Origin: an uncultured Lentisphaerales bacterium
Lineage (GTDB): Bacteria > Verrucomicrobiota > Kiritimatiellia > RFP12 > UBA3636
Direction of reading: 5' to 3'
DNA length: 64,000 nucleotides
Assembly: GCA_964405775.1 (NCBI GenBank)
Contig: CAYOPG010000001.1
Location: 4,276 to 68,275 of the forward strand
Within the stretch, counting starts at the first letter, position 1, and every line of letters begins with the position of its first letter. The notes under the pieces were generated by a model. That model worked only from the letters and a program-made list of their open reading frames with translations. It ran no database searches and was not told the DNA's origin. Shown here piece by piece: positions 8,687 through 38,444 of this stretch. A program made the position numbers and the translations under genes.

Positions 8687-8810
8687 TTCTGTTACCCCAG
8701 TGTTCGTATGTGAAGTTGCTAAACCGTCCACTGTTGACGCGCCCTGCGTAATCGTGAACTGTTCTTGCCCTCCATTCTAGTGCCGCTGCCTTGAATAAGT
8801 CAAGCTCTGG

Positions 8811-8875: not shown

Positions 8876-9008
8876 GCGCGGTAAATGCATCATGTTGCCC
8901 TGTTTTCCCCGCGTTGCCGCCTGACTCCCGAACGGGGGCGGGCAAGTGGCATACCGATCTCCATTCACGATAGCCCATATAAACGGCTGAAACGGCAGGT
9001 GACCCATA

Positions 9009-14828: not shown

Positions 14829-14976
14829 CATAACCTGTTGCGCAGTGGCGAAGAGCGGCGTTGCGGCTCCTGCCTTAGCCAGACTGCGAGAGCGCAAAAC
14901 GCGAACATCGCAATCGCGTTCCCTAAAAACCATCATCAGATTGATTTTTTTTTGGAGAAAAGGTATTATACGCACA

Positions 14977-16566: not shown

Positions 16567-18731
16567 CAAGGACGATAGTCATGAAAAAAAATGTGAAAAC
16601 AAAAAAACAGTTCACAAGGCAAGAGCTATTCGTCAACAGGGAGCTGAGTTGGTTGGAGTTTAACCAGCGCGTCTTGGACGAAGCGCGTGACACATCAAAC
16701 CCACCGCTGGAACGCTTGAAGTTTCTCGCGATCACGGGATCAAACTTGGATGAGTTTTACATGGTTCGAGTAGGCGGATTGAAGATATTGTCGGACGCGA
16801 AGATCAGACGGCAAGACATATCCGGAATGTCTCCCAACCAACAACTAACGGCGATCACGCGACGTGTTCGTAAGATGGGTGCTGAGCAGTACGCAATTCT
16901 CAAAAACCTTTGCACAGAACTTGCTGGCAACGAGCTTGTGCTGCTTGAAGACGTCGGAGAAATGTCCAACGAACAACGTAAATGGCTGGAACGCGAATTC
17001 ATGGACAATGTGTTCCCGCTCATCTCGCCGGTAGGCGTAGATGAATCCCGCCCGTTCCACCCTGCCGGGCTGATGCTCCACTGCGCAGCGCTTCTCGATC
17101 CGATCAATCAAGGTGGAGAACCCCGTCTCGCGCTAATTCCGCTCGGCCCGAAAATATCTCGTTTCATACGAATCCCCGATCCCGCTGGACGCGCAATCTT
17201 CATACCGGTTGAACAAGTGGTGGCGTGGCAGATCCACACCATTCTGGAAGGCCAGACCGTGCGCGAATGCGTACCTTTCCGTGTAACCCGGAATGCAGAC
17301 ATCGAACTGCGCGAAGATCTTTCCTCGGATCTCCTTGTCGGCATGCAAGATCTCTTGGAAGACAGGCAGCAGACAGAGTGCATACGCCTCGAAATACACC
17401 GGTCAGCTTCACGTAAACTCACTGCGATCCTTAAACGAGCCCTGCATCTTGAACAGGCGGTCGTTTACCATATTGATGGTCCGGTTGAATTGCGCGGCAT
17501 AATGGCGCTGGCGGATACCGATGGCTTCGACAACCTTCGCGATTCGCCATGGGAGCCCATGAAATCGCCCGATGTTGACATCAAGGAGCCAATCTTTCCA
17601 CAGATCGCTCAGAAAGACATTCTCTTGGTACACCCATACGAATCGTTTGACCCTGTCGTCAAATTCGTAGAGGATGCGGCGGACGATCCTCAGGTGCTCG
17701 CCATCAAACAGGTCTTATACAGAACCGCGCCGCAAAGCGCCATAATAGACGCGCTCGTGCGCGCCGCTCAAGTCGGTAAACACGTTACAGTGCTCATAGA
17801 GCTCAAGGCTCGTTTCGATGAAGCTCGAAACATCACACAAGCCAACCGCCTTGAACTGGCCGGGGTGCATGTGGTCTACGGAGTGCGCGGACTTAAGACA
17901 CACTGCAAAATTTGCCTAGTCGTGCGCCGTGAACCTCAGGGCATTGTGCGCTACACGCACTATGCGACTGGCAACTACAATGAGAAAACCGCCAAGCAGT
18001 ACAGCGATGTAGGATTTTTCACTTCGAGAACGGATTTCGGAGCAGACGCCTCAGATGTCTTCAACGCCATCACAGGCTATTCGCAACCGCAGTCGCTGCG
18101 TCGCCTTGAGATTGCGCCCTTCACCATACGTTCAACACTTCTCAGGCTCATCGCCAACGAAACCGAGCGCGCGCGAAACGGAGAGGAGGCCGAAATCACG
18201 ATGAAGATGAATTCGCTAAGCGATGAAGGCATCACGCGAGCCCTGTATGAGGCATCGCAGGCCGGCGTTAAGATACGCATCAACGTGCGTGGCATCTGCT
18301 GCCTCAGGCCTGGGGTTCCCGGTCTGAGCGAGAACATAACCGTCATCAGCATTGTCGGCAGATACCTTGAACACGCGCGAATTTATCATTTCCGGGATGG
18401 CAACCGCAACGCTCTTTACATTTCAAGCGCCGACATCATGCCGCGCAATCTGGATAGCCGCGTGGAGTTGATGATTCCTGTCGTCGACCGAGGAACACGA
18501 GCGAAACTCCTGGAAACGCTTGAAACGTATTTCGCCGACAACACCAAGGCCAGAGTCATAAATTCAGACGGCTCGTACAGCGTTCGCAAGCCCGAGGGCA
18601 AAGAAAAACGTCTCTGCGCACAGGAAGAACTCTATAATAAAGCGCGCCGCGCCTCCAACATGAAGGAACAAACAAAACCGACGATGCTGGAGCCATACCA
18701 CAAACAACGTAAAACCAAAACAGACAGATAG
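16563..18731 (+). CDS. ppk1: polyphosphate kinase 1
   Basis: 722 aa. RELSWLEFNQRVLDEA N-terminus, PLD-like HxK repeats (KTHCKICLVVRRE). Overlaps the ppx stop by 4 nt. Confidence 0.92.
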   Translation: MTRTIVMKKNVKTKKQFTRQELFVNRELSWLEFNQRVLDEARDTSNPPLERLKFLAITGSNLDEFYMVRVGGLKILSDAKIRRQDISGMSPNQQLTAITRRVRKMGAEQYAILKNLCTELAGNELVLLEDVGEMSNEQRKWLEREFMDNVFPLISPVGVDESRPFHPAGLMLHCAALLDPINQGGEPRLALIPLGPKISRFIRIPDPAGRAIFIPVEQVVAWQIHTILEGQTVRECVPFRVTRNADIELREDLSSDLLVGMQDLLEDRQQTECIRLEIHRSASRKLTAILKRALHLEQAVVYHIDGPVELRGIMALADTDGFDNLRDSPWEPMKSPDVDIKEPIFPQIAQKDILLVHPYESFDPVVKFVEDAADDPQVLAIKQVLYRTAPQSAIIDALVRAAQVGKHVTVLIELKARFDEARNITQANRLELAGVHVVYGVRGLKTHCKICLVVRREPQGIVRYTHYATGNYNEKTAKQYSDVGFFTSRTDFGADASDVFNAITGYSQPQSLRRLEIAPFTIRSTLLRLIANETERARNGEEAEITMKMNSLSDEGITRALYEASQAGVKIRINVRGICCLRPGVPGLSENITVISIVGRYLEHARIYHFRDGNRNALYISSADIMPRNLDSRVELMIPVVDRGTRAKLLETLETYFADNTKARVINSDGSYSVRKPEGKEKRLCAQEELYNKARRASNMKEQTKPTMLEPYHKQRKTKTDR

Positions 18732-20110: not shown

Positions 20111-21505
20111 ATGCTTTTTTCGTCTGTCATTTTCCTTTGCCTGTTTTTACCAGTAGTACTGGCGCTGTATTACTGCCCATTTTTTCTCGGCAGAGGGTAC
20201 AAGAATTTCATATTGTTTTCGATAAGCATTCTGTTCTACGCGTGGGGTGAGCCTTTTTATGTTTTCCTGCTGCTTGCATCGATAATTTTTAACTGGATAA
20301 TAGGGCTTGCGGCGAAAGGCAGGTTCGCAGGCTTGGCGGTGGGTATCGGCGTAGCAGTCAACATCGCTGTGTTGATGGCATTCAAGTACCTTGATTTTCT
20401 GCTCTACAACATAGGTCTAATTACAAACAGTGAGATCCGTCTTACAGGCTTGCCTCTGCCTATAGGCATTTCATTCTATACTTTTCAGGCAATATCCTAC
20501 ATTGTGGACGTCAAGCGAGGCAAGGCCAAGGCCAGGGTGAACCCAATGGAAATAGGTCTTTATATTTCGCTGTTTCCTCAACTGATTGCCGGACCAATCG
20601 TCAGATACGAAACTATTGCAGAGGAAATCAAGGGCCGAGCCGAAACCATCGCCGACTTCTACGCAGGAATGCAGCGGTTAATAATTGGACTTAGCAAAAA
20701 GGTGATCTTGGCGAACAGCATGGGATTTCTTGCCGACTCTATTTTCGACACCCCTGGCATGGCGCAATCCTCAATGGCCACGGCGTGGATTGCAGCGCTT
20801 GCGTACACCTTTCAGATTTTCTTCGACTTCTCGGGCTATTCAGACATGGCGATCGGTTTAGGCAGGATATTCGGCTTCCACTTTCTCGAAAACTTCAACT
20901 TCCCCTATGTGGCAAAGTCCGTATCCGAGTTCTGGCGGCGATGGCACATCTCGCTCTCTACATGGTTTAGGGACTACGTGTATTTCCCGATGGGCGGAAG
21001 CAGGGTAACCTCCAAGTTCAGGCTTTTGTTCAACTTATTCGTAGTCTGGTCGCTGACCGGCATTTGGCACGGTGCGAACTGGACTTTTCTGTTGTGGGGT
21101 ATTTTTTATTTCATACTCATAGCGCTGGAGAAGACCACTGGCTTTAATAAGCGGTTTGGGTGGTTTGGCCATGTTTACACAATGTCCGCAGTCATAGCCG
21201 GGTGGGTGCTCTTCCGATCTCCTACTGCTGCAGTTGCGGTACAACACCTCAAAACCATGCTGGGCATAGGAGTAGCCGCTGTTTATGACGAGATCACACT
21301 CTGGTGGTTGGAAGAATACTGGCTTGTTTTCCTTGTAGCGGCATTCTTCAGTGTCCAACATTGCAGGATAGGTAGCCTATGGTCGCGACTGCCGGCCTTC
21401 ATAGCCCGCCCGGTGGTTTTTGTCGTTCTCATGGTGCTGCTTGCCGTTAACATCTGCATGCTGGTAAAAAGCACACACAACCCTTTCATATATTTTAACT
21501 TTTAG
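20111..21505 (+). CDS. MBOAT family membrane-bound O-acyltransferase (AlgI/DltB/PatA-like)
   Basis: 464 aa polytopic protein. N-terminus MLFSSVIFLCLFLPVVLALYY and the conserved His region (WRRWHISLSTWFRDYVYFP) typical of MBOAT. Confidence 0.88.
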   Translation: MLFSSVIFLCLFLPVVLALYYCPFFLGRGYKNFILFSISILFYAWGEPFYVFLLLASIIFNWIIGLAAKGRFAGLAVGIGVAVNIAVLMAFKYLDFLLYNIGLITNSEIRLTGLPLPIGISFYTFQAISYIVDVKRGKAKARVNPMEIGLYISLFPQLIAGPIVRYETIAEEIKGRAETIADFYAGMQRLIIGLSKKVILANSMGFLADSIFDTPGMAQSSMATAWIAALAYTFQIFFDFSGYSDMAIGLGRIFGFHFLENFNFPYVAKSVSEFWRRWHISLSTWFRDYVYFPMGGSRVTSKFRLLFNLFVVWSLTGIWHGANWTFLLWGIFYFILIALEKTTGFNKRFGWFGHVYTMSAVIAGWVLFRSPTAAVAVQHLKTMLGIGVAAVYDEITLWWLEEYWLVFLVAAFFSVQHCRIGSLWSRLPAFIARPVVFVVLMVLLAVNICMLVKSTHNPFIYFNF

Positions 21506-21517
21506 GATATTTGGTCT

Positions 21518-22570
21518 GTGAACACTATCAACAACAAACTCTGGCAGATCCTCGCAATTGTTGTATTCATTGCCATGATTTCGTTTATCCCGATCAGAAC
21601 CCTAACATTAAACTGTGATGGTTTTTTCTCTGCCTTGAGAAGCGAGATACGCGCAAAACCCCCGAAAACCAACAATACTTTTATTCGCCTGGCTTACTCG
21701 GCACGTTGCATCGAGCCAGTTCTTTTGGCACATATGGCAGATAAGAATCATTACACCTCGGCAGCTTCCAGATTCGAATATGCTTTCACGCGTCGAGTCA
21801 GAGGAGCAAATAAGGCGAACGTGTGGGGCAAGGATGGCTGGCTTTTTTATATGGCTGATGATGCGCCGAGCATCTTCAAGGGAGTCAACCGGTTTTCGGA
21901 AAAAGAGCTCAAGTCATATCTCAATAACTTAACGGCAGAAAAGGAACATCTCGCATCCTACGGCATGAAACTTGTTTTGCTAATCGTTCCGAACAAAGAG
22001 ACAATCTATGGCGAATTCATGGCTCCGACAATAAAGCGGGAGAACACATATTCCAAAATCGACCAGTTGGTCGACTACCTGAGGTCTAACGGCTTTGAAG
22101 ATGTTGTCTACCCCAAGGCTGAAATGATTGCGGAACACGAAAAACACCACCTTTATTTCAAGGACGACACGCATTGGACCCCTTTGGGAGCTTTTATTGC
22201 TTCACAGCAGCTCAACGCGCATTTGGGCTACGAGCGGCAGTATTTGAATGAGGTCTCTATATCGAATCTGCAACAAGAAAAGATTGGAGACATTTCACGT
22301 CTTCTTGCTACGCAATGGCGAGTACAGGAATCAGAAATTCCCTCCATCGACCCAAAACGCAACGGAACAATTACCGACAAAAAGGTTTTCATAGCAGGCG
22401 ACTCATTCCGTCATCTAATATCACCGGAGTTCGCACATATCAGGCGCGAACACTCCGTCGACACCTATGAACCTAGTCAATTGATGTCGGGGGATTACGA
22501 CATCGTCGTCCTTGAGGCTGTGGAACGCTACCACATGGGACTTCGAGGATTCACTTTTCGTCTGCCGTGA
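21518..22570 (+). CDS. DHHW/AlgX-AlgJ-like periplasmic O-acyltransferase partner (SGNH-like)
   Basis: Signal-anchor N-terminus. DTHW motif in HLYFKDDTHWTPLGAF. Position immediately after the MBOAT gene. Confidence 0.65.
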   Translation: MNTINNKLWQILAIVVFIAMISFIPIRTLTLNCDGFFSALRSEIRAKPPKTNNTFIRLAYSARCIEPVLLAHMADKNHYTSAASRFEYAFTRRVRGANKANVWGKDGWLFYMADDAPSIFKGVNRFSEKELKSYLNNLTAEKEHLASYGMKLVLLIVPNKETIYGEFMAPTIKRENTYSKIDQLVDYLRSNGFEDVVYPKAEMIAEHEKHHLYFKDDTHWTPLGAFIASQQLNAHLGYERQYLNEVSISNLQQEKIGDISRLLATQWRVQESEIPSIDPKRNGTITDKKVFIAGDSFRHLISPEFAHIRREHSVDTYEPSQLMSGDYDIVVLEAVERYHMGLRGFTFRLP

Positions 22571-24543: not shown

Positions 24544-25191
24544 ATGAATATGTTTTTATTGACCACCCTCGCCCAAGCCGAAACACAGACGTCACAAGCG
24601 ACGTTCCCGACGTGGATTATAATTCTCGTCGTTGTCGCAGTAATAGCACTCGCCTTAATCGGCATGTACAACTCTCTTGTGACGCTGCGCAACCGCTACA
24701 AAAACGCTTTTTCGCAAATAGATGTTCAACTCAAAAGGCGTTACGATCTTATACCCAACCTAGTCGAATCGGTCAAAGGCTACATGAAGCATGAGCGCGA
24801 AACACTGGAAGCCGTGATCAAGGCGCGCAATATCGCGGCTACAGCCGCTCAAGCTGCGAGCTCAGCGCCCGGTGATCCTGATGCTATGGGCAATCTGGCA
24901 GCGGCAGAAAGCTCACTGAAGGGTGCAATGTCGCGCCTTATGGTGGTGGTTGAACGCTACCCTGAACTCAAGGCAAATGAAAACATGATGGCGCTTCAGG
25001 AAGAACTCACTTCCACTGAAAACAAGGTGTCGTTCGCCCGTCAGGCATACAACGATGCGGCGATGGCTTACAACACTAAGCGCGAGGTGTTCCCCAACAA
25101 CATTTTTGCGGGTATGTTCGGCTTCAGAGAAGCCAAGCTGTTCGAAGTTGCTGACGCGACCGAGCGCGAGGCTCCCAAAGTCCAGTTCTAA
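24544..25191 (+). CDS. lemA: LemA family protein
   Basis: N-terminal TM plus NRYKNAFSQIDVQLKRRYDLIPNLVESVKGY...ERYPELKANEN. Confidence 0.9.
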   Translation: MNMFLLTTLAQAETQTSQATFPTWIIILVVVAVIALALIGMYNSLVTLRNRYKNAFSQIDVQLKRRYDLIPNLVESVKGYMKHERETLEAVIKARNIAATAAQAASSAPGDPDAMGNLAAAESSLKGAMSRLMVVVERYPELKANENMMALQEELTSTENKVSFARQAYNDAAMAYNTKREVFPNNIFAGMFGFREAKLFEVADATEREAPKVQF

Positions 25192-25205
25192 TCGCTTATC
25201 GTTAA

Positions 25206-27203
<1,998 letters not shown>

Positions 27204-27219
27204 ACACGCAATCCAGAAA

Positions 27220-28443
27220 ATGAAAAGACTTGCTATATTGGGCGGCGAACCGGTTAACAAAAAAACACCAGAATTCATAAAGTGGCCGGTCGCGGGAGAG
27301 CTTGAAAAAAAAGCGCTGCTGGAAGTGTTGGAATCCGGCAAATGGGGCGCCGATGGAGAGCAGAGACTCTCTCTTTCACATGAGTTCGCGGAGTACTGCG
27401 GCACAAAACACGCCCTTCCAGCCATTAACGGCACGACATGCCTTGAGATGATCCTGAGAGCGTTGGGCATAGGACGCGGCGATGAGGTTGTAGTGTCGCC
27501 ATACACATTCGTGGCAAGCGTTCACGCAATAGTGAACACTGGCGCCTTTCCGGTGTTTGCCGACACCGATCCGGAGACTCAGAACCTTTCGCCTGAGTCG
27601 TGCGAGGACGCCATAACAAACAGGACCCGAGCGATTATGGCAGTCCACATGGGTGGGCGCCCCGCCGACCTCGATGCTCTTATGGAGATTTCAAACAGAC
27701 GTGGCATCCCTCTTATTGAGGACGCGTCGCACGCACATGGCTCGGAGTGGAAAGGATCAAAAGTCGGCAGTTTCGGAATCGCGGGCGCCTTCAGCTGTCA
27801 GGCGTCTAAGAACATCAGCGCGGGCGAAGGCGGGATAATCACAACGAACGACTCCGGGCTATATGAAAAACTGCTTTGCCTGCACGACTACGGGCGGGCA
27901 GGCGGCGTTGTAGCAGAGTTAGGCACTAACGCACGCCTCGCAGAATGGCAGTGCGCCATACTGCGGGCGCAACTCCACAGGCTCGACGCTGACAACGAGC
28001 GCCGCTACCGTAACAAAGGGATTCTAGAAGAGGTGTTCCGCCAAACAAAATCCCTTGAGCCACTCAAGCGTGACGACCGCATCACGATGAACTCGTGTCA
28101 CGTCTTCACGTTCCGTTACCACTCGGAAAATCTGCTCGGGCTTACACGTCAACAGTTCTTTAAAGCACTTTGCGCCGAGAATGTTTGTTCAGGAGGCCCT
28201 GGATACGCCGAACCGATTTACACCATGAAGTTCATGCACTCTGATGAATTCCTAAAAAAAACAGGCCGCAAGTTCATGACTAGGCCGGAACAAATGCCCG
28301 GCAATGAAATTGTCGCCCACAGCGAAGGCTGCTGGTTCTACCACTCGACGTTGCTTGGAGAAAAAGAAGACACAGAAAGGCTCGCCGAGGCGATTTTTAA
28401 AGTGGAAGCGAATGCGGAAGCGCTGGTTAAGGAGTTCTCATAA
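27220..28443 (+). CDS. DegT/DnrJ/EryC1/StrS family PLP aminotransferase (paralog 1)
   Basis: 408 aa from ATG 27220. GKWGADGEQ...VVVSPYTFVASVHAIV...AVHMGGRPADLDAL...FSCQASKNISAGEGG. The ORF-track start at 27166 overlaps the previous gene. Confidence 0.88.
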   Translation: MKRLAILGGEPVNKKTPEFIKWPVAGELEKKALLEVLESGKWGADGEQRLSLSHEFAEYCGTKHALPAINGTTCLEMILRALGIGRGDEVVVSPYTFVASVHAIVNTGAFPVFADTDPETQNLSPESCEDAITNRTRAIMAVHMGGRPADLDALMEISNRRGIPLIEDASHAHGSEWKGSKVGSFGIAGAFSCQASKNISAGEGGIITTNDSGLYEKLLCLHDYGRAGGVVAELGTNARLAEWQCAILRAQLHRLDADNERRYRNKGILEEVFRQTKSLEPLKRDDRITMNSCHVFTFRYHSENLLGLTRQQFFKALCAENVCSGGPGYAEPIYTMKFMHSDEFLKKTGRKFMTRPEQMPGNEIVAHSEGCWFYHSTLLGEKEDTERLAEAIFKVEANAEALVKEFS

Positions 28444-28457
28444 CTAATGGAGACTAT

Positions 28458-29645
28458 ATGCAACCGAATTCGATAAAACCTGCCGTTGAATTTCCCGCAT
28501 GGCCGCAATGGGATGAGCATGAACGCAATAACATCTTGAAAGCCCTGCAGGATCGGAACTGGGGGACACTCGGCCCCGTGGCAATGGGGTTTGCAAGACG
28601 GTTTGCCGAATACATTGGGGTACCCCATGCTGTTCCGGTAAATTCTGGCTCGCAGGCCATGCAAATACTTTTAGAGGGCGCTGGGATCGGGTTCGGCGAC
28701 GAAGTTATCGTACCGGCTTACGCTTGCAGTCCGACGGCGTCAGCTGTTGCGATTACAGGTGCGGTGCCCGTCTTCGCAGATGTTGGCGCGGGCGATGCCT
28801 GTTTGTTGCCATCCGAGGTAGAGCGGCTGATCACGTCCAAAACGCGCGCGATAATAGCCGTGCACCTAGGAGGTATGCCGTGCGATATGGAGGCATTGAA
28901 TAGGGTGGCGAAGCGCCATTCCATCTTGCTGTTGGAAGACTGCTCCCACGCTCATGGAGCGGAATTCCTAGAACGTCGCGCCGGTTCTCTGGGCAACGGA
29001 GCCATATTCAGCTTTGGCAGTGGCATGAACATGACCTGTGGAGAAGGCGGAATCATTGTGACTGGCTCCTACGAACTTTATGCCGAATGCTGGCATTTAC
29101 ACACTTCTGGCCGAGCACTTGCCGGGAGCTCCGAATTCGGTGGTACTGTGTTGATGGGCACTAATGGGCGGATGGCAGAATGGGAAGCCGCGATTCTGGA
29201 TGCCCAGATGGATCGCCTGGAAGCGCAGAATGCAACTAGAACGCGAAACGCCGTCGCTCTAAAACAAAAGCTTGGAGAACTCGACGGGCTGATTTTACGG
29301 GATTCTGACCCTCGGGTTTCACTAAACGCATTCAATTATTTCGGTGTAAGACTAGATCTTAGGCGCATAAATTGCGACCGTAATGGTTTTGTCTACGCAC
29401 TCGCCGCGCGAGGCACACCAGCCACAACCGGCTTTGCAGCGCTCTGCCGCATGGAGATGCTCAAGAGCGAAAGTTACGTCAAGAGCACTGGGCACGCCTT
29501 TGCGGATGACAAGCGGACACCAAACGCGGAAGTTTGGGCGGAAAGCTCCGTCTGGCTTCCAGGACGTGTTTTGCTGGGCACCGAGGAGCATGTCGCGAAA
29601 ATCTTCGAAGACTTTCGCGAAGTCGCACTTGCCAATGCGAAGTGA
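28458..29645 (+). CDS. DegT/DnrJ/EryC1/StrS family PLP aminotransferase (paralog 2)
   Basis: 395 aa. VIVPAYACSPTASAV...AVHLGGMPCDMEAL...FSFGSGMNMTCGEGG. Confidence 0.88.
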   Translation: MQPNSIKPAVEFPAWPQWDEHERNNILKALQDRNWGTLGPVAMGFARRFAEYIGVPHAVPVNSGSQAMQILLEGAGIGFGDEVIVPAYACSPTASAVAITGAVPVFADVGAGDACLLPSEVERLITSKTRAIIAVHLGGMPCDMEALNRVAKRHSILLLEDCSHAHGAEFLERRAGSLGNGAIFSFGSGMNMTCGEGGIIVTGSYELYAECWHLHTSGRALAGSSEFGGTVLMGTNGRMAEWEAAILDAQMDRLEAQNATRTRNAVALKQKLGELDGLILRDSDPRVSLNAFNYFGVRLDLRRINCDRNGFVYALAARGTPATTGFAALCRMEMLKSESYVKSTGHAFADDKRTPNAEVWAESSVWLPGRVLLGTEEHVAKIFEDFREVALANAK

Positions 29646-29654
29646 GGTTCGTCG

Positions 29655-30617
29655 GTGAGTGGGCAGATAGTAATAGGAGTCGATGGAGGCGGCAGCCGAA
29701 CAACAGCGGTTGCGGCGTCGAAGGACGGACGGCTTCTATCCGTCGCACATGGCGAAGGAATCAACTACAACACAATCGGAATGGATGAGGCCCGGCGCCG
29801 GCTGCGTAAAGTTGTAGAACAATTGCTCCAGAGTTGCGGAGCCAGAGACATCCGGTTCATATCTGTGGGGATGTCGGCACTAGATGGGCCCGCCACTGCG
29901 GAAGTGCTCAACCAGTTCGCTGGTGGCGAGTTCCCCACAGAAAAGCTTATTCTGGACTCAGATGCCAACGCCGCGCTTTACGCCGCAACTCTTGGAGGCA
30001 AAGGGACGATTGTCATATGCGGAACGGGATCCATGGTGCAGTCGTCTGATGGTCGTGGCAATGTCCGCGTGGGCGGTGGCTGGGGCGTTGTGACCGGGGA
30101 TCCAGGAAGCGGCTACCAGCTCGCGACGGATGGATTGCGAGCCGCTACTGCGGCATGGGACGGAATCGCACAGCCCACGATGCTGTGTGCAGAAGCTCTT
30201 GCGTTCTTCGGAGCTGACAAGCCTCGTTCGCTCATAGAAAAAATCTATGCGCCAGAAATGAATGCCGCCCTCCTGGCGAGGTTCTCGAAGCAAGTTGAAA
30301 AATGCGCCGCCGACGGCGATCATGTGGCTATAACTGTAATCGAGCGCAACATGTACGACCTCGCTAGTATAGCTGCCGCAACAGCCTTTGAAGCTGAAGG
30401 ACAGACTTTCTGGTTATACGGCGGAGTTTTTGAAAACAGTGAATTAATGAGAAAGATTTTTTCTCTGGCATTGGCGAAACTAGCATGTGGATCATCAACG
30501 AGAGTGCTAGACGTGTCGCCTTCCGTTGGAGCACTGCTTTATGGTTACAAAATGCTAGGCGAGCTGACATCAGAGGTTGAAAACGCCATCAAGACAACAT
30601 ACAAAGAGGTGTTTTAG
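29655..30617 (+). CDS. BadF/BadG/BcrA/BcrD-type ATPase, N-acetylglucosamine-kinase-like sugar kinase
   Basis: GTG start. IVIGVDGGGSRTTAV...ICGTGSM...GGGWGVVTGDPGSGY. Confidence 0.8.
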   Translation: MSGQIVIGVDGGGSRTTAVAASKDGRLLSVAHGEGINYNTIGMDEARRRLRKVVEQLLQSCGARDIRFISVGMSALDGPATAEVLNQFAGGEFPTEKLILDSDANAALYAATLGGKGTIVICGTGSMVQSSDGRGNVRVGGGWGVVTGDPGSGYQLATDGLRAATAAWDGIAQPTMLCAEALAFFGADKPRSLIEKIYAPEMNAALLARFSKQVEKCAADGDHVAITVIERNMYDLASIAAATAFEAEGQTFWLYGGVFENSELMRKIFSLALAKLACGSSTRVLDVSPSVGALLYGYKMLGELTSEVENAIKTTYKEVF

Positions 30618-30619
30618 AA

Positions 30620-31354
30620 ATGAGTGCGATAGAAGCATACTGGAAGGCTCTTTCAATAATAATGACTGAAGCGTTTACGCGACAGGCAGAGACGCTTGAG
30701 AAGGCTGCTCGGGCTATTGCCTCGGCGCTTCAAGAAAAGCACATGGTTTACACTTTCGGCACAGGACACGGACATCTGCTTTCTCTGGAGCTTTTCTACC
30801 GCGCCGGAGGACTTGCGAGCCTTTGCCCGATGCTTGATGAAACCCTGATGCTTCACAAAGAGGCTGCCAAAGGCTCCGAGTTGGAGAGGCTGAGCGGAAA
30901 GGCGCGCGAGTTGATTGTAAAATACGGCGTAAAAAAAGGAGACATCGTCTTGGTGTGCTCAAACTCAGGGAGGAATGCTGCTCCTGTTGAAATGGCAGCA
31001 GAGGCGAAATCTGTCGGCGCGGTTGTAATCGCGCTTACAAGCATACGCCATTCCTCATCTGTATCTCCGCGTAACGCGCTGGGCAAACGCCTGTACGAAG
31101 CCGCAGACATTGTATTGGACAACTTCGGCGAACCGGGAGACGCCATTTTCGAGGTTTCTGACGGCATGCGCGCGGGCCCCACATCCACGGCGGTCGGTTC
31201 TGCGCTGCTACAAGCCATCGTTTGCCGCGTTTCCGAGATTCTTAACGAGCAAAAAGCCAACGTCGAGTTCTACAAATCAGCGAACATCGATGGTGGCGAC
31301 GCATGGAATTCTGTCCTCATCGAAAAATACAAGCCGCTAATCCCGCATCTGTGA
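30620..31354 (+). CDS. SIS-domain protein (UPF0309-like)
   Basis: 244 aa. YTFGTGHGHLL...IVLVCSNSGRNAAPVEMAAEAK...VIALTS pattern of a sugar-phosphate-binding SIS fold. Confidence 0.6.
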   Translation: MSAIEAYWKALSIIMTEAFTRQAETLEKAARAIASALQEKHMVYTFGTGHGHLLSLELFYRAGGLASLCPMLDETLMLHKEAAKGSELERLSGKARELIVKYGVKKGDIVLVCSNSGRNAAPVEMAAEAKSVGAVVIALTSIRHSSSVSPRNALGKRLYEAADIVLDNFGEPGDAIFEVSDGMRAGPTSTAVGSALLQAIVCRVSEILNEQKANVEFYKSANIDGGDAWNSVLIEKYKPLIPHL

Positions 31355-31421
31355 CGTGCAAGTTTGCCATCCATCACAGGTCGTGGTAGAATTAGCACCA
31401 ACAAACAGCGAATAAGGATAT

Positions 31422-33632
31422 ATGAATAAGGACACATCACCATCTGGGAAGCCTACCGGCGCCGCACTGCAGGTCGGGTGTTTTCCAGAAGGCAAAATTC
31501 CTGTCAAATTCAAAATAGGCAATCAGACGGTCAGGTCGTTTACCAGCCATGACCCCATAGGCGACCGCTATTCCATCGTGTTTGGCTCTACCAACCATTT
31601 GTACGATATCAACGTCTCGTTCGGAGGGCCGTTTGAGCTCTCGCATAATGATTTCGCTGAAATCCTGAGACGGAGCTCCGCTCTACGACACCCATGCCTT
31701 GTCCCTTATTTCGCGTGTGGAGACGACAACGGCGTTATATGGCTCCGTTCAGCGCACAGCGCGGGAGTTTCCGCGCAAAACACTGCGACCTCCGGACTTG
31801 ATGACCACGAAGAGCTAAGCGAAAACGAATTGGCGGACGAAGACGGCAACCGTTGCTTCACCACACTACGATCACTGCTGAACGCTTGCGGGGGGAATCT
31901 AGAAGATGAGGACCGGAACCTGATAATAGGTGATCTGGCTGAAGCTCTTGCTTTTTTACACTCCAATGGCGCTTACGCAGGCACGATAACTCCTGAGACG
32001 ATTTTTCTGGATCGCGTCCGACGTCATTCAGGTATGATCGCTAAGCTTAGATTCTATAACTGGCCAGCAACCGCTACACCCGAGCTAATCGCCAAAGATC
32101 TCTCGCAGGCAGGAGAGATCATTGCGCTACTTGTAGGCGCCGGCAACAGGCATGGCTCACAAACCGCACAAAAACTCATTAGGCTTTCTGAACAATTGCG
32201 CTCTCCGCTCCCTGAAATGACGGGAATGGATTTTCTGAGCGCTTTAACAGATACGATCAAGTTACATCGCACACCTCGGCATTTGAAAAAAACGGCTAGC
32301 GACACTGCGAAGACCACTATTGGATCCAGTACGGGCGGAGCCGATCCCGATGATGCCGGAGCTGCTACAGGCAAGATACACCACCTCTCACACCAAGGCA
32401 GGGAACAGCGCCGCGTGCGAAGACACAAGAAAACCGCCCGAATCGGCATTCTTGATTTAGCCGATGACAGAGTAAAAAAAGCAGTCACGATGTTTGCCGT
32501 GATTCTTGTATTCGCTGCTATAATCCTCACAGCTTTTGGAATATACTACGGGGTGAAATACTTTGACCACAGACGCATTCTCTATCAAAGGCTTGAAGAA
32601 CCGAGAGGGTTCTCCCCTGTCACAGTTCTAGATGCCGAGACAGGAAAGGCGTTTACAGAGACGCAGATTAATGTGGACTATTTCACTGCCGATCAACTTC
32701 AGGCAGCCGTTGTAGAAGGTGATTCCGCCGCTGCGGCACGGCTATGCGTGACTCGCGTGCTCGAGGCTCCGTCAGATCTCCAGGTTCGCGCCGAATCCAT
32801 CGCCGTCCTGACGCCACTTCTTGAGAACCTCGAATCGCGTGCCCAAGCGGAGCCGTCCGCTGCATACTGGCGAGCGTGCGCGATCATGCTCGCCATCGCA
32901 GGGGAACCGGACTACGAAGCCGCCGTCTCCAACCTGCAGTCCGCTTCAAGTTCGGGGCATATCAACGCGAAAGTGTTGTTGGGAGACTGGTACGCCACGC
33001 GCCGTTCCGTCCCGAATACAGAGGATGACCGCAAGGCTCTTTCACTTTGGCTTGAGGCATCCGGGGCGGGCGATTCCGAAACACGCCAGAACGTAGCAGG
33101 ACGGATAATAAAATTCGTCAGGGAAGGACGTGGATTCAATAAAGGCGACACCGCTCCAGTTGATTTCATCCGTTCTGTCGCTACCGGAGGAACCCCAGAA
33201 GCTATGATGATGATGGCGGACGTATACGAGGAAGGCATCTACGTCGAACAGAGCTACGCGACCGCCCTTTCGTGGCTCCGGGATCTAGCTTCAAACATGA
33301 ACGCGGCATTTTACTTGCGTTCAGAAGCGCAGCGACGCATGGCCGAAATGTTTGCAGTCGGCAGAGGTTCGCCACAATCAGACACGGCAGCACGGACGTG
33401 GTACGCACGTGCCGCGTCACTTGGAAACGCAGAGGCGATGAAGGCGTTTGCGGATTTTCTAGAGACAGGCAGAGGCGGTGGTGAAGGCGAATCAGACACT
33501 GAGGCGGCAAAAGAATGGCGCTTGAAGGCTGAGACCGCCGCCCCACCTCCGGCTCCGGATGACACTTTCAAGTTTATAACCGCGGTGCGCACTTCCGCGG
33601 CAGTTTTCAACGACCAATCCACAAAACAATGA
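31422..33632 (+). CDS. membrane-spanning protein: N-terminal degenerate protein-kinase-like domain, one TM helix, C-terminal Sel1/TPR-like repeats
   Basis: Kinase-like landmarks with catalytic residues replaced: LRHPCLVPYF, AFLHSNGAYAGTITPETIFLD (HRD/LKPEN positions), IAKLRFYN (DFG position). TM helix VTMFAVILVFAAIILTAFGIYYGV. Sel1-like repeats DWYATRRSV..., MMMADVYEEGIYVEQSYATALSWL, RTWYARAASLGNAEAMKAFADFL. Confidence 0.6.
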   Translation: MNKDTSPSGKPTGAALQVGCFPEGKIPVKFKIGNQTVRSFTSHDPIGDRYSIVFGSTNHLYDINVSFGGPFELSHNDFAEILRRSSALRHPCLVPYFACGDDNGVIWLRSAHSAGVSAQNTATSGLDDHEELSENELADEDGNRCFTTLRSLLNACGGNLEDEDRNLIIGDLAEALAFLHSNGAYAGTITPETIFLDRVRRHSGMIAKLRFYNWPATATPELIAKDLSQAGEIIALLVGAGNRHGSQTAQKLIRLSEQLRSPLPEMTGMDFLSALTDTIKLHRTPRHLKKTASDTAKTTIGSSTGGADPDDAGAATGKIHHLSHQGREQRRVRRHKKTARIGILDLADDRVKKAVTMFAVILVFAAIILTAFGIYYGVKYFDHRRILYQRLEEPRGFSPVTVLDAETGKAFTETQINVDYFTADQLQAAVVEGDSAAAARLCVTRVLEAPSDLQVRAESIAVLTPLLENLESRAQAEPSAAYWRACAIMLAIAGEPDYEAAVSNLQSASSSGHINAKVLLGDWYATRRSVPNTEDDRKALSLWLEASGAGDSETRQNVAGRIIKFVREGRGFNKGDTAPVDFIRSVATGGTPEAMMMMADVYEEGIYVEQSYATALSWLRDLASNMNAAFYLRSEAQRRMAEMFAVGRGSPQSDTAARTWYARAASLGNAEAMKAFADFLETGRGGGEGESDTEAAKEWRLKAETAAPPPAPDDTFKFITAVRTSAAVFNDQSTKQ

Positions 33633-34279
33633 TATCAGCTTACATATTCGATCTTGACGGAACACTTCTGGACACTGAAATCGTCTGGGTAGACGCAACT
33701 ATTAACTATCTCGCCTCAAAAGGCCACAATATATCGCACGCCCAGTCCATGAACATTGTATATGGACGAGCATGGTTCGATGTTTACGCAGATATCGTTT
33801 CGAGATTTCCAGACCTAGACATGGGCTTGCCTAAAATGCAGGACGAAATGGCGGAATACTTCTATGCTCTGCGAGATGTCACCGACGTCCGCATCCATGG
33901 TTCGGTGGAGCTGCTGCACCGTCTCTCGAAAACAAAGCCATGCTGCATCGTCTCTGGTTCGCCGCGTTCGCACATTACCGAAGGTATTGAAATCATGGGC
34001 GTTGAGGACGCCGTCTCCTTCTATCTCGGCTCGTCCGATTACGATTTCGGCAAACCGCATCCTGCAGGATTTTTAGCTGCAGCAGAGCGCTTGGGAGTCG
34101 CGCCGTCTGAGTGTATCGTATTTGAAGACTCAGAAGTCGGAATCGCCGCGGGGAAAGCCGCCGGAATGAGAGTCGTGGCACTGTCCAGACCCGGCCACCC
34201 CAAGCAGGATGTCGCGGCGGCGGATATTATCCTTCCCGATCTCGCACAGTTCGAGCCTGCGCTGTTTGGTGAAAAATGA
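33629..34279 (+). CDS. HAD-superfamily hydrolase (beta-phosphoglucomutase/phosphatase-like)
   Basis: YIFDLDGTLLDTE motif I, later FEDSEVGIAAGKAAGM. Confidence 0.85.
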   Translation: MISAYIFDLDGTLLDTEIVWVDATINYLASKGHNISHAQSMNIVYGRAWFDVYADIVSRFPDLDMGLPKMQDEMAEYFYALRDVTDVRIHGSVELLHRLSKTKPCCIVSGSPRSHITEGIEIMGVEDAVSFYLGSSDYDFGKPHPAGFLAAAERLGVAPSECIVFEDSEVGIAAGKAAGMRVVALSRPGHPKQDVAAADIILPDLAQFEPALFGEK

Positions 34280-35241
34280 GCGGCGCCACGGGTAAGAGCG
34301 CTTCATGTGAGGCATGGATACTAGTCGGCCCGACAGCTACGGGGAAGACGGCAGTTTCATGTGAATTAGCGCGCCGCCTTAGTGCCGTTGTCCTTTCGGC
34401 CGACTCCATGCTCGTTTACAAAGGCATGGATATCGGCACAGCAAAGCCCTCCAGCTCAGAACTTGAAGATATCGATGTTTTTGGTATCGACATAGTTCCG
34501 CCATCTGAAAAATTCAGCACAGGCCGCTGGCTTGAATGTGCAAAAGAGGCTTTTGCAACAGGGCGGGATGTGATTGTCGCCGGTGGAACCGGCCTGTACA
34601 TAAACGCCCTTATCAACGGTATCGACGCACCACCCTCCTCCACCGCCACTCGCGCAGTCACAACCGAAATTTTAGAAAGAGGAGGAGTCGAGGCTCTGCG
34701 CATGCGAGCGGAAGAACTCTCCCCGGGGTCGGTCACCTCTCTGGGCGATCCAGATAATCCTCGCCGACTGATGCGGCTTGTTGAAAAGCTCCTCGCGGGT
34801 GCGACTGCTTCAGACAGCGACAAGCGCCTGACTAGTAACGGCGGCATTGTTGCAGGGCTGGAAATTTCCCCCACCGCACTTGCTGTGCGCATTGAAGCGC
34901 GCGTCATCAAGATGTTTGAAGACGGCCTGCTTGATGAGGTAGCGGAGCTGCGGCGCAATTACCCCGGGTTTTCGGAAACAGCCGGGAAAGGCATAGGCTA
35001 CGCCGAAGCCGCGGCGGTGCTCGACGGCGTAATTGATCGAAAAGAGGCAATACAGAAAATCGCCTTGCGCACCCGACAACTCGCGAAACGCCAAAGGACA
35101 TGGTTCCGTCATCAACTTGATGTAGACTGGATACGAGGGCCCGAAAACAAACACGACGTCGCCCGTGCTGCGGATGACGTTATGGAGGCATGGAAACGCC
35201 ATGGGAAAACTAGAATATCAATCAGAAGAGAGTGTTCCTAA
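34276..35241 (+). CDS. miaA: tRNA dimethylallyltransferase
   Basis: ILVGPTATGKTAVSCELARRL...SADSMLVYKGMDIGTAKP. Overlaps the upstream gene by 4 nt. Confidence 0.9.
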   Translation: MSGATGKSASCEAWILVGPTATGKTAVSCELARRLSAVVLSADSMLVYKGMDIGTAKPSSSELEDIDVFGIDIVPPSEKFSTGRWLECAKEAFATGRDVIVAGGTGLYINALINGIDAPPSSTATRAVTTEILERGGVEALRMRAEELSPGSVTSLGDPDNPRRLMRLVEKLLAGATASDSDKRLTSNGGIVAGLEISPTALAVRIEARVIKMFEDGLLDEVAELRRNYPGFSETAGKGIGYAEAAAVLDGVIDRKEAIQKIALRTRQLAKRQRTWFRHQLDVDWIRGPENKHDVARAADDVMEAWKRHGKTRISIRRECS

Positions 35242-35995
35242 AGTATTAAAGGAGGCGCCTACCAATATTGCGCAGGTTCCTGACACAACAGATACTTTAA
35301 AAAATGTGGTCAGGAAGGATGACAGACCGCGGGAAAAGCTGAAGGAAGGCAGATATCTTTCAGACGCGGAACTTCTTGCCATCATTATTTCGCAGGGAAT
35401 CTCGGGTCATAATGTGCTGAGCATTGCAAATGCGATAATGAAAGATGCCAAGACACTGACAAATCTGACTAAGAAGGGTGTTGGTGAACTAAAGGAGTAT
35501 AAAGGCATCGGAGATGCAAAGGCTATACAAATAGCCGCAGTGCTCGAACTCGCCAAAAGGGTTCGTGATGAGAAAATAGAGAAAGGGGCTCCGTCGCTGC
35601 TAACACACCCGGAAGTCGTCGCAGAGGAAGTCAACGCCTACAAGCTGAATGATGATACTGAGTCATTCTTTGTCCTGCCGATTGACAAAAAATGCCGTCT
35701 CTGCGGCCCGGTTACAGAAGTGACACACGGTATTCTCGACTCTTCACTTGTGCACCCGCGCGAAGTCTTTAGAGTTGCTCTGCGTTGGGCGTCCGCCTCA
35801 GTGATTGTCGCGCACAATCACCCGTCCGGCGACCCCACGCCATCTAGGGAAGACCTCGATGTCACTCGCAAGCTCATAGAGGCTGGTCGAATTGTGGCTA
35901 TACCCGTAACTGACCACATAATCGTCGGTGACAAACACCTGTTTCCGCCAGGCTTTCACAGTATACGCCGCAGCGGCGTCATTGCTTTCGACTAG
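35201..35995 (+). CDS. radC: RadC-like JAB domain protein
   Basis: RPREKLKEGRYLSDAELLAIII N-terminus (HhH). JAMM motif HNHPSGDPTPSREDLDVTRKL. Start placed at MGKLEYQ, which overlaps the miaA 3' end; the exact start is uncertain. Confidence 0.85.
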   Translation: MGKLEYQSEESVPKVLKEAPTNIAQVPDTTDTLKNVVRKDDRPREKLKEGRYLSDAELLAIIISQGISGHNVLSIANAIMKDAKTLTNLTKKGVGELKEYKGIGDAKAIQIAAVLELAKRVRDEKIEKGAPSLLTHPEVVAEEVNAYKLNDDTESFFVLPIDKKCRLCGPVTEVTHGILDSSLVHPREVFRVALRWASASVIVAHNHPSGDPTPSREDLDVTRKLIEAGRIVAIPVTDHIIVGDKHLFPPGFHSIRRSGVIAFD

Positions 35996-37209
35996 CTACA
36001 AAGCTCTGGACATATTTCGGAGAGCCGCTTCGCAAGATAAGGGGTAGAGCCCCATTCGTCGCGCAAATCAAGGTATTCGGAAAGCGCTGTTTCCAAACCT
36101 GCCCGAGACGTCCTTACAGCTCGTATCATTATGTTGCGGGCGGTGGCTTCTGGCTCTATGAATTCGACGACGTTAGCACGGTATCCCATAATGCGCAGTA
36201 TCTGTGCGCGGAAAGCATCGGTCAGGATATCAGCAAGTCTCTCGCGCAGAATTCCGTTGCGCAGAACAGCGCGGTTGCGCCCGGTGGTGCCGAGTTGCGA
36301 ATGTAGCTCGTGCTGACAACATGGAGCGCACAGAATTGCACGCGCAGAATGTTCGACACCGAAAGCCATCGCCTCGTCGGTGGCAGTATCACAGGCATGC
36401 AGGCTCATTACAATGTCCGGCTCGGCAACGGGTTTGAAGACGCCGATGTCGGATGCAATGAAACATGCACCGCTTTCATCCCACCCCAAAGACTCGGCCA
36501 TTCTACGGCACGACCGGATGATTTTTTCGTTTATGTCTATACCTGTGAGCTTAATTTCAACACCGCGCGTTGCCTCAAGATAGGCTTTGGCCGAAAACGA
36601 AAGGTATGACTTTCCGCAACCCGCGTCGAAAAGCTGAATGGGGGTGTTTTGTTCGAACTTAAGGGCATCAAGCGTGGCGTCGATAATGCGGAGGAATTCA
36701 TTGACTTGGCGGTATTTAGCCCGCATGGTCGGTTTGATCTCGCCCTCTGGATCAGAAAGCCCGATGACCAAGAGCAACTTCGATGAATCGAATCTCGTAA
36801 GGGGATAGTCTTTTTCCCGGTTATGCGATCTTGATGCTGCGGGGTCACGGTTTAAGTTAGACTTGCTCCTCGAAATGAGAACACGTCCCTTTTTCGAAAC
36901 ACGGCAATGCAGATCTCGGTCAGACGTCATTACATGAGCCTCTGAGAGCGGGATTCCGCTCATCAGTTCCGACATTTTTTTCATGGCCTCGCCGCGCTGC
37001 AGATTTTCCGATTCAGAAGCGCGGGTGAACTGCCAAACTTCGCCGTCCTTTACCTCTACAATGCGGAGCTTCAGTTCGTTATTTGATCCGGGGCCGACTG
37101 GCTCCTTGAATTTTAAAACCGCGGATATGAACGATTGCACGTCGAAAATCATCTTTATGATTTCACGTGATGCCGCTTTCTTTTCTTGCTGGAAATCTTG
37201 CGTTTTCAA
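35992..37209 (-). CDS. class I SAM-dependent methyltransferase (Methyltransf_32-like)
   Basis: 405 aa. Motif I LFDAGCGKSYLSF. The stop overlaps the radC stop in the palindrome CTAG (convergent). Confidence 0.7.
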   Translation of the reverse strand: MKTQDFQQEKKAASREIIKMIFDVQSFISAVLKFKEPVGPGSNNELKLRIVEVKDGEVWQFTRASESENLQRGEAMKKMSELMSGIPLSEAHVMTSDRDLHCRVSKKGRVLISRSKSNLNRDPAASRSHNREKDYPLTRFDSSKLLLVIGLSDPEGEIKPTMRAKYRQVNEFLRIIDATLDALKFEQNTPIQLFDAGCGKSYLSFSAKAYLEATRGVEIKLTGIDINEKIIRSCRRMAESLGWDESGACFIASDIGVFKPVAEPDIVMSLHACDTATDEAMAFGVEHSARAILCAPCCQHELHSQLGTTGRNRAVLRNGILRERLADILTDAFRAQILRIMGYRANVVEFIEPEATARNIMIRAVRTSRAGLETALSEYLDLRDEWGSTPYLAKRLSEICPELCS

Positions 37210-38444
37210 AAGAATTTACCTACACCTAGTCGGAGCGAAGTCTCCGTTCCGAAAGACACGCCACCGCCGACGATATAGTCGGCAAAAGGAGAATACCAAC
37301 CCGAGAAAAGTATTCCCACAGGATCTGTCCGTTCGGCGTTTAGGTCGTAATGCTGGTCAGCTATATCGAGCGAACCACTGTAGCTCACGTCCGTGTAGGC
37401 ATCAACGAAAAGGTATGCCCCTACGCCCCAGAAGTGCGATGTATAATCAATGCCACCGATGAGGGAGAAAGTGAATTCTCCCATGTCTACCTCTTCCGAG
37501 TAATTCGTGAAAGTGTATTCGTAAACAGTTGATTCCGCTGTTCCCGGCGTTTCTGGAGTTGCGGGGATTTCCGGCACTACGTATTCACCGCTTTTATTAA
37601 AAACGGTCGCGTTCATATCAAGCGTCGTAGTCTCGTAAGAGGTCATTGCGCCTAAATTCGCATTCCAGTTGCCGTCAATGACGAACGAATACACGTAGCC
37701 AATCCTGCCTCCCATGCCAGAGCCACCATCGAGATTTAGATCCGAGAGATAAGTCCTGTCCGGCACTATGCCACCGCTCGTCTTTGCATCTGTAACCACA
37801 TAGATATCCGCAAACCAATTGCGCCATGTAGCCGACAGTCCAAGGCGGGTAATCTCTATATCCTCTCCGCCGCTTCCAGTATAGTCTCCGACATTCCAGT
37901 CGTATTTTACTGTGTGGATCGGCTCTATCCACACAAGCCCAGCTGCAGGATAAGTGCGCGGTGTGACGGTGAGGTCACCAAAAACAGTCCTATATGCGCC
38001 GGGGTTAGTGCTAGGCAACGGAGCGGGCTCCCAGCGCTGCGGTCTTGCAACGTCTGGTGCGACCGGCTCAGGATCGCCAGAACGCGACATGACAATGGGA
38101 GGTGGAGGAGTGCTCTCGTCTCCGTGAAATTCGCCGATCCGTGAGATCGCCATCGCAAACCCGCCCAAGTCAACTATGCGGTTGAGCACGAAATCATACG
38201 GCCCGTGACGTCGTTCCGTGACTGAATCCGCGAACAAAATCTCTTGCGGGCGCGAGGCGAGAATCGTCCACTCCTTCCCTCCCGCAGTGAATTTGACACC
38301 CGGTTTTTTGACAATAGGCCCCAACGTGTCTCGCGTGACCGTGGACGTTAGCCAGAACGTCTTGTACTCTTCGGCGTTGGCGGTCATGCCGACTGCCGCA
38401 AACACCAGCGTCAAAGCAACAATAAAGCTAATTTTATTTTTCAT
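37206..38444 (-). CDS. outer-membrane beta-barrel protein (hypothetical) with signal peptide
   Basis: MKNKISFIVALTLVFAAVGMTANA signal peptide. Pro-rich linker. Alternating hydrophobic beta-strands. C-terminal ...LRLGVGKFF with terminal Phe. Confidence 0.6.
   Translation of the reverse strand: MKNKISFIVALTLVFAAVGMTANAEEYKTFWLTSTVTRDTLGPIVKKPGVKFTAGGKEWTILASRPQEILFADSVTERRHGPYDFVLNRIVDLGGFAMAISRIGEFHGDESTPPPPIVMSRSGDPEPVAPDVARPQRWEPAPLPSTNPGAYRTVFGDLTVTPRTYPAAGLVWIEPIHTVKYDWNVGDYTGSGGEDIEITRLGLSATWRNWFADIYVVTDAKTSGGIVPDRTYLSDLNLDGGSGMGGRIGYVYSFVIDGNWNANLGAMTSYETTTLDMNATVFNKSGEYVVPEIPATPETPGTAESTVYEYTFTNYSEEVDMGEFTFSLIGGIDYTSHFWGVGAYLFVDAYTDVSYSGSLDIADQHYDLNAERTDPVGILFSGWYSPFADYIVGGGVSFGTETSLRLGVGKFF

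Follow-up and report, generated by a model that had tools for sequence, protein, structure and literature searches.

What does a membrane protein do when it keeps the layout of a receptor kinase but not its catalytic residues? This question is raised by a single gene in a 64,000-nucleotide stretch of contig CAYOPG010000001.1, from an uncultured Lentisphaerales bacterium (the window, by which the whole stretch is meant). The gene is an open reading frame (ORF) with an ATG start at 31422..33632 on the forward strand (+), and it encodes a 736-amino-acid (aa) transmembrane pseudokinase-Sel1 protein whose full-length relatives (687-798 aa) share its layout. An initial annotation had described it as a catalytically dead kinase-like domain joined through the membrane to extracytoplasmic Sel1 repeats, and the peptides on which that description was based (LRHPCLVPYF, IWLRSAHSAG, AFLHSNGAYAGTITPETIFLD and IAKLRFYN) are all found within this ORF. 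By the alignments described below, the N-terminal domain genuinely derives from the Hanks-type (PknB-like) Ser/Thr kinase fold of bacteria, but its catalytic site is dead.

Kinase fold and catalytic positions of the N-terminal domain

Is the N-terminal region a kinase fold at all? Taken as a single sequence it gave nothing significant against Pfam, NCBIfam or PDB sequences, and its sub-threshold kinase matches (E-values 0.3-1.5) were collinear, with aa 42-116 resembling the Myt1 N-lobe and aa 157-227 the catalytic-loop region of PKG. One explanation for such a result is that the resemblance arose by chance and that the region is unrelated to kinases. However, a family profile built from an alignment of 26 N-terminal domains matched 319 distinct PDB sequences at E<1, the best 60 of which were protein kinases or pseudokinases throughout, led by 7naa (E 4e-7) and M. 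tuberculosis PknI (E 2e-6), with PknG, PknE, PAN3, GCN2 and LRRK2 next. Alignment of the family domain with hhalign gave a probability of 96.6% (E 6.5e-10) against a database protein carrying PF00069 and of 87% (E 3.6e-6) against the PknB kinase domain. Searched singly, 4 of the 26 members matched the Pfam Pkinase model PF00069 weakly and below threshold. An AlphaFold2 model of the domain, made from a 24-sequence alignment, reached a predicted local distance difference test score (pLDDT) of 89 and a predicted template modelling score (pTM) of 0.87; the single-sequence AlphaFold model of the whole protein was of low confidence (pLDDT 42). Foldseek with the N-domain model returned at least 1988 PDB chains at E<=1e-3, in which the top 50 were all kinases and PknI was the best (E 2e-10). 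The model is bilobal, with a five-stranded N-lobe plus αC and a helical C-lobe containing αE, the catalytic-loop region and αF. The profile, hhalign and fold searches are each independently significant and collinear, and the profile and fold searches rule out a chance resemblance, to which we assign a negligible probability. The kinase fold is, as far as computation on sequences and a predicted model goes, established. The kinase likeness proposed in the initial annotation is thus upheld in both profile and structural searches, although the domain spans residues ~25-285 rather than the N-terminal ~330 originally suggested.

The N-lobe (aa 25-111; 31494..31754, +), delimited by hidden Markov model (HMM) alignment to PknI and 7naa, by hhalign and by the strands and helix of the model, contains a degenerate Gly-loop (S42..G47), N64 at the β3 Lys site and an HPCL..YFACG..W107-x-R109 block. 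It is followed by an acidic insert (aa 112-147; 31755..31862, +) that lies between β5/hinge and the C-lobe helices, is 25% Asp plus Glu and is modeled at pLDDT 73-80; an insert of 27-45 aa is found in every member and is poorly conserved. The C-lobe (aa 148-285; 31863..32276, +), defined by the profile, the family alignment, hhalign and the model, comprises αE with D171 and H180, the catalytic remnants A186-G187-T188...T193 and F211-Y212-N213, and αF with two further helices. Its modeled activation segment is very short, with ~10 residues from β8 to αF.

Does any catalytic capacity remain? By sequence, a pseudokinase is a kinase fold that lacks at least one of the VAIK-Lys, the HRD-Asp and the DFG-Asp (PMC12599244; bioRxiv 10.1101/2025.01.12.632604), and in the window protein this fold has lost all three. 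The register of the motifs was concordant between the HMM and hhalign alignments, and DFG was placed by the family alignment at F211-Y212-N213 because members of one of the three family clades, clade C, align NYG, GYG or DYG there. The GxGxxG loop reads S42-H-D44-P-I-G47, in which only the third Gly (G47) is kept, and the VAIK Lys of β3 is replaced by N64, a site at which Lys occurs in none of the 26 members. HRD has become A186-G187-T188, the catalytic-loop Lys T190 and the catalytic Asn T193. Individual residues survive here and there in the family: the HRD-Asp in 5/26 members, among them a 72%-identical orthologue (L001), the catalytic Asn in 3/26 and the DFG-Asp in 1/26. A complete catalytic set is present in 0/26, and the family alignment shows no conserved αC Glu. 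The initial annotation was therefore correct that the catalytic residues, including the VAIK lysine, are missing, and they are still missing after correct alignment. Its placement of HRD at YAG (Y185-A186-G187) and of DFG at RFY (R210-F211-Y212) was in each case one residue off, a shift that leaves the conclusion of a dead site unchanged. Its remark that no Gly-rich loop is obvious holds for the canonical GxGxxG and not for the loop itself, which is degenerate with an invariant G47 and a nearly invariant Y50.

The residues that the family does conserve lie elsewhere. After the start Met, G47, W107 and R109 in the N-lobe and D171 in the C-lobe are invariant, and Y50, G55, T57, G100, H180 and A207 nearly so; these conserved residues map to the Gly-loop, to N-lobe β strands including β5 and to αE, and none lies at a catalytic position. 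An alternative hypothesis is that they belong to a cryptic enzyme, in which the fold has been repurposed (as in AMPylation by SelO or glutamylation by SidJ) or phosphotransfer proceeds through migrated residues (as in WNK). Repurposed pseudokinases have precedents (PMC12599244), the family keeps a handful of polar positions (D171, R109, K/R208, D226 and H180), and the HRD-position Asp persists in the five members mentioned above. However, the mapped catalytic positions hold no polar residue conserved across the family, the sole candidate for a migrated basic residue (R49 in the Gly-loop) occurs in only 14/26 members, and the model shows a shortened activation segment and substrate-binding region. 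Moreover, PknB has the same residues as D171 and H180 at the aligned positions of its αE, which suggests a framework role for both. For these reasons we consider a cryptic enzyme very unlikely.

Membrane topology, Sel1 ectodomain and regional constraint

Between the pseudokinase and the membrane lies a juxtamembrane linker (aa 286-353; 32277..32480, +), predicted to be cytoplasmic, that is of low complexity, first Ser/Thr-rich and then strongly basic in His, Arg and Lys (22% K+R). It leads into a single transmembrane (TM) helix (aa 354-378; 32481..32555, +), which is the sole 19-residue hydropathy peak above 1.6 (maximum 2.72). A lone hydrophobic segment is found at the same relative position in 25/26 relatives. 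The family mean of Lys plus Arg is 7.3 in the 30 residues before the TM helix versus 3.9 after it, with 11 such residues preceding the helix in the window protein, and no family member has a signal-peptide-like N-terminus. The one TM helix and the receptor-like topology that had been proposed are both borne out by these observations, and the protein is predicted to be a bitopic, N-in/C-out inner-membrane protein with the pseudokinase in the cytoplasm and the Sel1 repeats outside.

The extracytoplasmic part is a Sel1/TPR-like α-solenoid of about 7 helical hairpins (aa 421-707; 32682..33542, +), delimited by alignments to Sel1 structures in the PDB and by the family profile. The whole protein scores 48.9 bits against the Pfam Sel1 model PF08238 (cut-off 30.7), Sel1 crystal structures align over aa ~496-705 with E. 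coli C5321 (4bwr) as the best (E 2e-14), and the family profile matches Sel1 structures at E 2e-44. The helix pattern of a solenoid is also seen in the low-confidence single-sequence model. Scanned singly, two units are canonical (aa 592-632 and 633-669; 33195..33428, +; PF08238 E 5.5e-5 and 5.6e-8), and the other ~4-5 hairpins are degenerate and not recognizable on their own; the Sel1 assignment of the initial annotation is thus confirmed, but of the at least 4-5 repeats it counted only these two can be recognized individually. The best Sel1 matches are C5321, MotX and ExoR. The scores of the latter two lie far below their family cut-offs (31 vs 330 bits for MotX and 23 vs 450 for ExoR), which places the similarity at the level of the repeat only, and because the periplasmic Sel1 protein MerG likewise falls far under its cut-off, nothing more specific than a Sel1 solenoid can be claimed. 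Sel1 solenoids are protein-protein interaction modules. The protein ends in a short tail (aa 708-736; 33543..33629, +) that carries a PPPAP motif, as read from the ORF translation and the family alignment. A Pro/Ala-rich tail had been described, and it is present, although here it amounts only to AAPPPAP (706-712) and is longer in relatives.

Is the solenoid the only part that matters? One hypothesis is that the Sel1 repeats do all the work, as an adaptor for the envelope, peptidoglycan or a secretion machinery like ExoR, MotX or PodJ, and that the pseudokinase is a passive folded plug. The Sel1 region is well conserved (mean pairwise identity 0.31), it bears the weak similarity to MotX and ExoR noted above, and public annotation recognizes just this part of the protein. 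However, no segment of the protein is better conserved than the N-lobe (0.34), which ranks ahead of the Sel1 region, the C-lobe (0.26), the linker (0.18) and the acidic insert (0.17). Three of the four invariant residues (G47, W107 and R109) lie in the N-lobe, which would not be expected of a passive plug, and the full-length pseudokinase domain is retained in all three clades. We therefore regard the passive-plug hypothesis as quite unlikely. The rationale for assigning a role to the dead kinase is that its N-lobe is at least as conserved as the Sel1 region and that the layout is kept in 29 sequence clusters, which indicates a domain under selection rather than a decaying relic. The pattern of sequence conservation argues for a retained, non-catalytic role centered on the N-lobe.

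Family distribution and gene neighborhoods

How widely is this architecture distributed? A word-indexed homologue search found one truncated relative, and the same search with the family profile added only two true kinases. An exhaustive HMMER search of 1.84 billion representatives recovered the 29 clusters, nearly all 687-798 aa long and of the same layout. A genome scan added an orthologue in a Lentisphaerae metagenome-assembled genome (MAG; 72% identity) and a homologue in a Kiritimatiellia MAG (39%), and all named members come from Lentisphaerota or Kiritimatiellota MAGs. Their public labels are 'sel1 repeat family protein', 'SEL1-like repeat protein', 'TPR repeat protein' and 'hypothetical protein', none of which is kinase-like. 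Between the window protein and its closest database representative, P0002 from an ENA metagenome, 9/736 positions differ, mainly near the C-terminus; by this comparison the window sequence is a close relative of P0002 and not an identical source. Alignment clustering resolves clade A (the window protein, L001, L002, P0005 and P0015, with P0013 as sister), clade B (P0007, P0008, P0011, P0018, P0020 and P0029) and clade C (P0019, P0025 and P0028), and LLV or LFV at the β3 Lys site is confined to clade C. This is probably a small family, inherited vertically and restricted to Lentisphaerota and Kiritimatiellota.

Gene neighborhoods were compared across 16 related loci. In the window, two DegT aminotransferases, a NagK-like BadF-family ATPase and a SIS-domain protein lie upstream, followed by a 67-nt gap before the pseudokinase-Sel1 gene. 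This gap contains a candidate sigma-70-like promoter (TTGCCA-17-TAGAAT with a TG extension; 31364..31392, +) that matches the consensus at 10/12 positions and has the top score across 27000-37500 (10.5 kb), a ranking based on match to consensus only; the total number of sigma-70-like sites in the same region is not higher than in shuffled sequences. A Shine-Dalgarno-like AAGGA (31414..31418, +), a consensus match read from the sequence, stands 3 nt 5' of the ATG. At the other end, the TGA of the gene shares bases with the ATG of a HAD-IA hydrolase gene (ATGA; 33629..34279, +), which lies directly 3' and is conserved in clade A (L002, L003/L004, L009 and L011). The genes miaA (IPPT) and radC (34276..35995, +) complete a pseudokinase-HAD-MiaA-RadC block that characterizes clade A and is found again at L003/L004, L009 and L011. 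The pseudokinase-Sel1 gene probably heads an operon with the HAD phosphatase, miaA and radC, and its position between a sugar-aminotransferase cluster and housekeeping genes is as first described. The HAD neighbor was considered as a specific functional clue and rejected, as it could be assigned only at the generic HAD-IA / beta-phosphoglucomutase-family level and to no equivalog.

The context differs from clade to clade. In clade B a ~295-aa single-domain T2SSF gene (TadB/TadC-sized) lies directly upstream in 6/6 loci (L007, L010, L012, L013, L014 and L015), often overlapping the pseudokinase-Sel1 gene and with no other Tad or type II secretion system genes nearby, and RdgC is encoded downstream in 4/6. 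At L007 the stop of P0007 is overlapped by the gene for a protein of 1510 aa (5135-9667) that contains a TMEM260_N (GT-C-like) domain, and this suggests that P0007 shares its operon with a giant glycosyltransferase-like membrane protein. In clade C the gene is followed by YchJ(SEC-C) and preceded by RadC or YbaB-RecR. Neighbors labeled as recombination or nucleoid proteins occur in all three clades (window 35165-35995; L005 7235-7960; L016 164-1076; L010 3347-4453), and the recurring RadC, RdgC and YbaB-RecR genes may reflect housekeeping synteny only or a real link. The 64-kb window encodes neither a paralogue nor an active Hanks kinase and lacks T2SSF and RdgC genes, and genes of the type VIIb secretion system (T7SSb; EssA, EssC, EsaA and WXG100) are absent from both the window and the 16 related loci.

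Could the dead kinase instead be a substrate? In this hypothesis the protein is a phospho-acceptor adaptor like MviN, modified by an active Hanks kinase encoded elsewhere, such that phosphothreonines in the linker (aa ~290-310) recruit a forkhead-associated (FHA) protein and couple envelope status to transcription or cell-wall synthesis. There is precedent in the phosphorylation of the MviN pseudokinase by PknB, upon which FhaA is recruited (PMC12599244), and the linker does place a Thr/Ser-rich segment ahead of its basic stretch. Phosphothreonine readers also exist in this organism: 14 kb from the pseudokinase-Sel1 gene, a gene at 47410-48816 (-) joins an FHA domain to a sigma-54 activator AAA+ domain and a Fis-type helix-turn-helix, and such a fusion to an enhancer-binding protein implies that Ser/Thr phospho-signaling feeds into sigma-54 transcription here. 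However, that gene lies far off and is read from the opposite strand, none of the 16 loci has a kinase or FHA gene as a conserved neighbor, and the linker is among the least conserved parts of the protein. A phospho-acceptor role is in our judgment unlikely.

Several other genes of the window were recorded in passing. A Ppx/GppA phosphatase with an extra HD domain overlaps PPK1 (14845-18731, +), forming a polyphosphate turnover pair that is followed by phosphofructokinase. An MBOAT acyltransferase adjoins an AlgX-like SGNH protein (20111-22570, +), resembling an AlgI/AlgX-type polysaccharide O-acetylation pair. LemA precedes an unusually long, 665-aa M48-family peptidase (24544-27203, +) whose protease domain occupies only aa 119-346, and a 571-aa protein (51088-52803, -) carries two DUF3592 domains. 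Four ORFs have no Pfam match at E<=1e-5, namely 11798-13240 (-, 480 aa), 13442-14308 (+, 288 aa), 37206-38444 (-, 412 aa) and 57177-58139 (-, 320 aa).

A proposed membrane-spanning scaffold compared with known systems

What, then, would a kinase fold of this kind contribute at the membrane? The reading we favor, with a probability of roughly 65%, is that the protein spans the membrane as a scaffold or adaptor without catalytic activity, on the model of EssB/YukC. Judged from its sequence, the pseudokinase would transfer no phosphate and probably would not bind ATP. Outside, the Sel1 solenoid would engage a partner in the periplasm or envelope, while the rigid pseudokinase, chiefly through its conserved N-lobe, would provide a dimerization and docking surface for cytoplasmic or membrane partners. 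The pairing of the clade B genes with a T2SSF membrane-platform gene is compatible with a role in a membrane protein complex. Several points weigh against this reading. The scaffold function is proposed by analogy. The top structural matches listed include neither EssB/YukC nor MviN, so that the analogy is architectural and not evolutionary. The clade A neighbors HAD, MiaA and RadC have no obvious link to scaffolding or signaling and may represent housekeeping synteny only, and the 64-kb window encodes no active Hanks kinase. The loss of ATP binding is likewise a prediction, and some pseudokinases that lack these catalytic residues still bind nucleotide.

The scaffold reading draws on EssB/YukC, a monotopic TM pseudokinase of type VIIb secretion in Firmicutes in which the three motifs and the Gly-loop are degraded and the activation loop attenuated, and which serves in scaffolding and dimerization (PMC12599244). 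In both proteins an N-terminal pseudokinase with degraded motifs faces the cytoplasm, and one TM helix connects it to a C-terminal domain on the outside. The differences are that the ectodomain here is Sel1, that the hosts are Lentisphaerota and Kiritimatiellota and that no T7SS genes lie nearby. Membership of the EssB/YukC family itself was rejected, as the T7SSb locus genes are missing and the structural match is not close. PknB is an active kinase with the Lys, HRD and DFG intact and a PASTA ectodomain, whereas the window protein lacks all three and carries Sel1 repeats. Identity to PknI and PknB is 15-16%, and the window protein differs from both in the acidic insert after β5 and in the truncated activation loop.

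Seven families of bacterial pseudokinases have been named, ActPs1-3, GLW, CP1, DYD and DLHK (bioRxiv 10.1101/2025.01.12.632604; PMC12599244). ActPs3/MviN resembles the present family in the shortening of the activation loop and in N-lobe constraint, and its own family constraints map to a back-to-back dimer interface (PMC12599244). Its motif remnants differ (VALT / LSIDHPSR / Y-- in ActPs3 versus DINV / AGTITPET / FYN here), and MviN is an actinobacterial protein in which the pseudokinase domain follows a 14-TM flippase and which is absent among the sequence or fold matches listed here. GLW, found mostly in Proteobacteria, has likewise lost the three motifs and has its TM segment C-terminal to the pseudokinase. 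In GLW, however, a hydrophobic residue replaces the β3 Lys, a substitution approached here only by clade C, while the window protein reads D-I-N-V; the GLW motif at the HRD position is absent from this family, which has [ACVS]-G-x and no Trp. GLW also lacks family-specific insertions, unlike the pseudokinase-Sel1 family with its 27-45 aa insert, and the phyla differ. Assignment to GLW was rejected on the GLW motif, the poly-Leu (LLLL/W) motif and the insert, the families being set apart by published description. No association of GLW with Sel1 has been reported (bioRxiv 10.1101/2025.01.12.632604).

From the side of the ectodomain, the closest parallels are the periplasmic Sel1 adaptors (ExoR, MotX, the periplasmic region of PodJ and EsiB/C5321), which are also extracytoplasmic, protein-binding Sel1 solenoids; these are soluble or anchored and have no kinase-like domain. 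A kinase fold followed by C-terminal TPRs is known from the Ser/Thr kinase families PknG, Strep1, Strep2, GN-NS1 and Myxo1 (bioRxiv 10.1101/2025.01.12.632604). None of these five is among the seven pseudokinase families, and their repeats are TPR and not Sel1. PknG is not known to have a TM helix between kinase and repeats, so that both would lie in one compartment, unlike the pseudokinase-Sel1 protein, whose two domains are predicted on opposite sides of the membrane.

Neither the 2025 atlas of Ser/Thr kinases nor the accompanying review literature mentions Sel1 or the Planctomycetes-Verrucomicrobia-Chlamydiae (PVC) phyla (bioRxiv 10.1101/2025.01.12.632604; PMC12599244), and a literature search for a pseudokinase or Hanks kinase combined with Sel1 found nothing relevant. 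Compared by description with the named families, the proteins described here appear to form a new family of bacterial Hanks-fold membrane pseudokinases, probably outside every one of them. A bolder and doubtful extension would make this an eighth, PVC-restricted pseudokinase family missed by standard kinase profiles: a core, vertically inherited envelope organizer in which the dead kinase would seed a membrane complex. In one clade its partner would be an orphan TadB/C-like T2SSF platform protein, in another a translationally coupled HAD phosphatase, and a link to RadC, RdgC and RecR/YbaB might run, for example, through tethering of the nucleoid to the membrane or through a function resembling a pilus or competence system. 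The clade-specific operon partners, the HAD phosphatase and the single-domain T2SSF protein, are in any case concrete candidates for interaction. Because its match to Pfam Pkinase is sub-threshold, the family escapes routine annotation, which suggests that existing catalogues underestimate how widespread membrane scaffolds derived from kinases are. Bacterial pseudokinases are a young field in which the pairing with Sel1, in under-studied phyla, is new and overturns no existing concept; the family is a clean case from nature in which the layout of a receptor kinase persists over hundreds of residues although catalysis is entirely lost.

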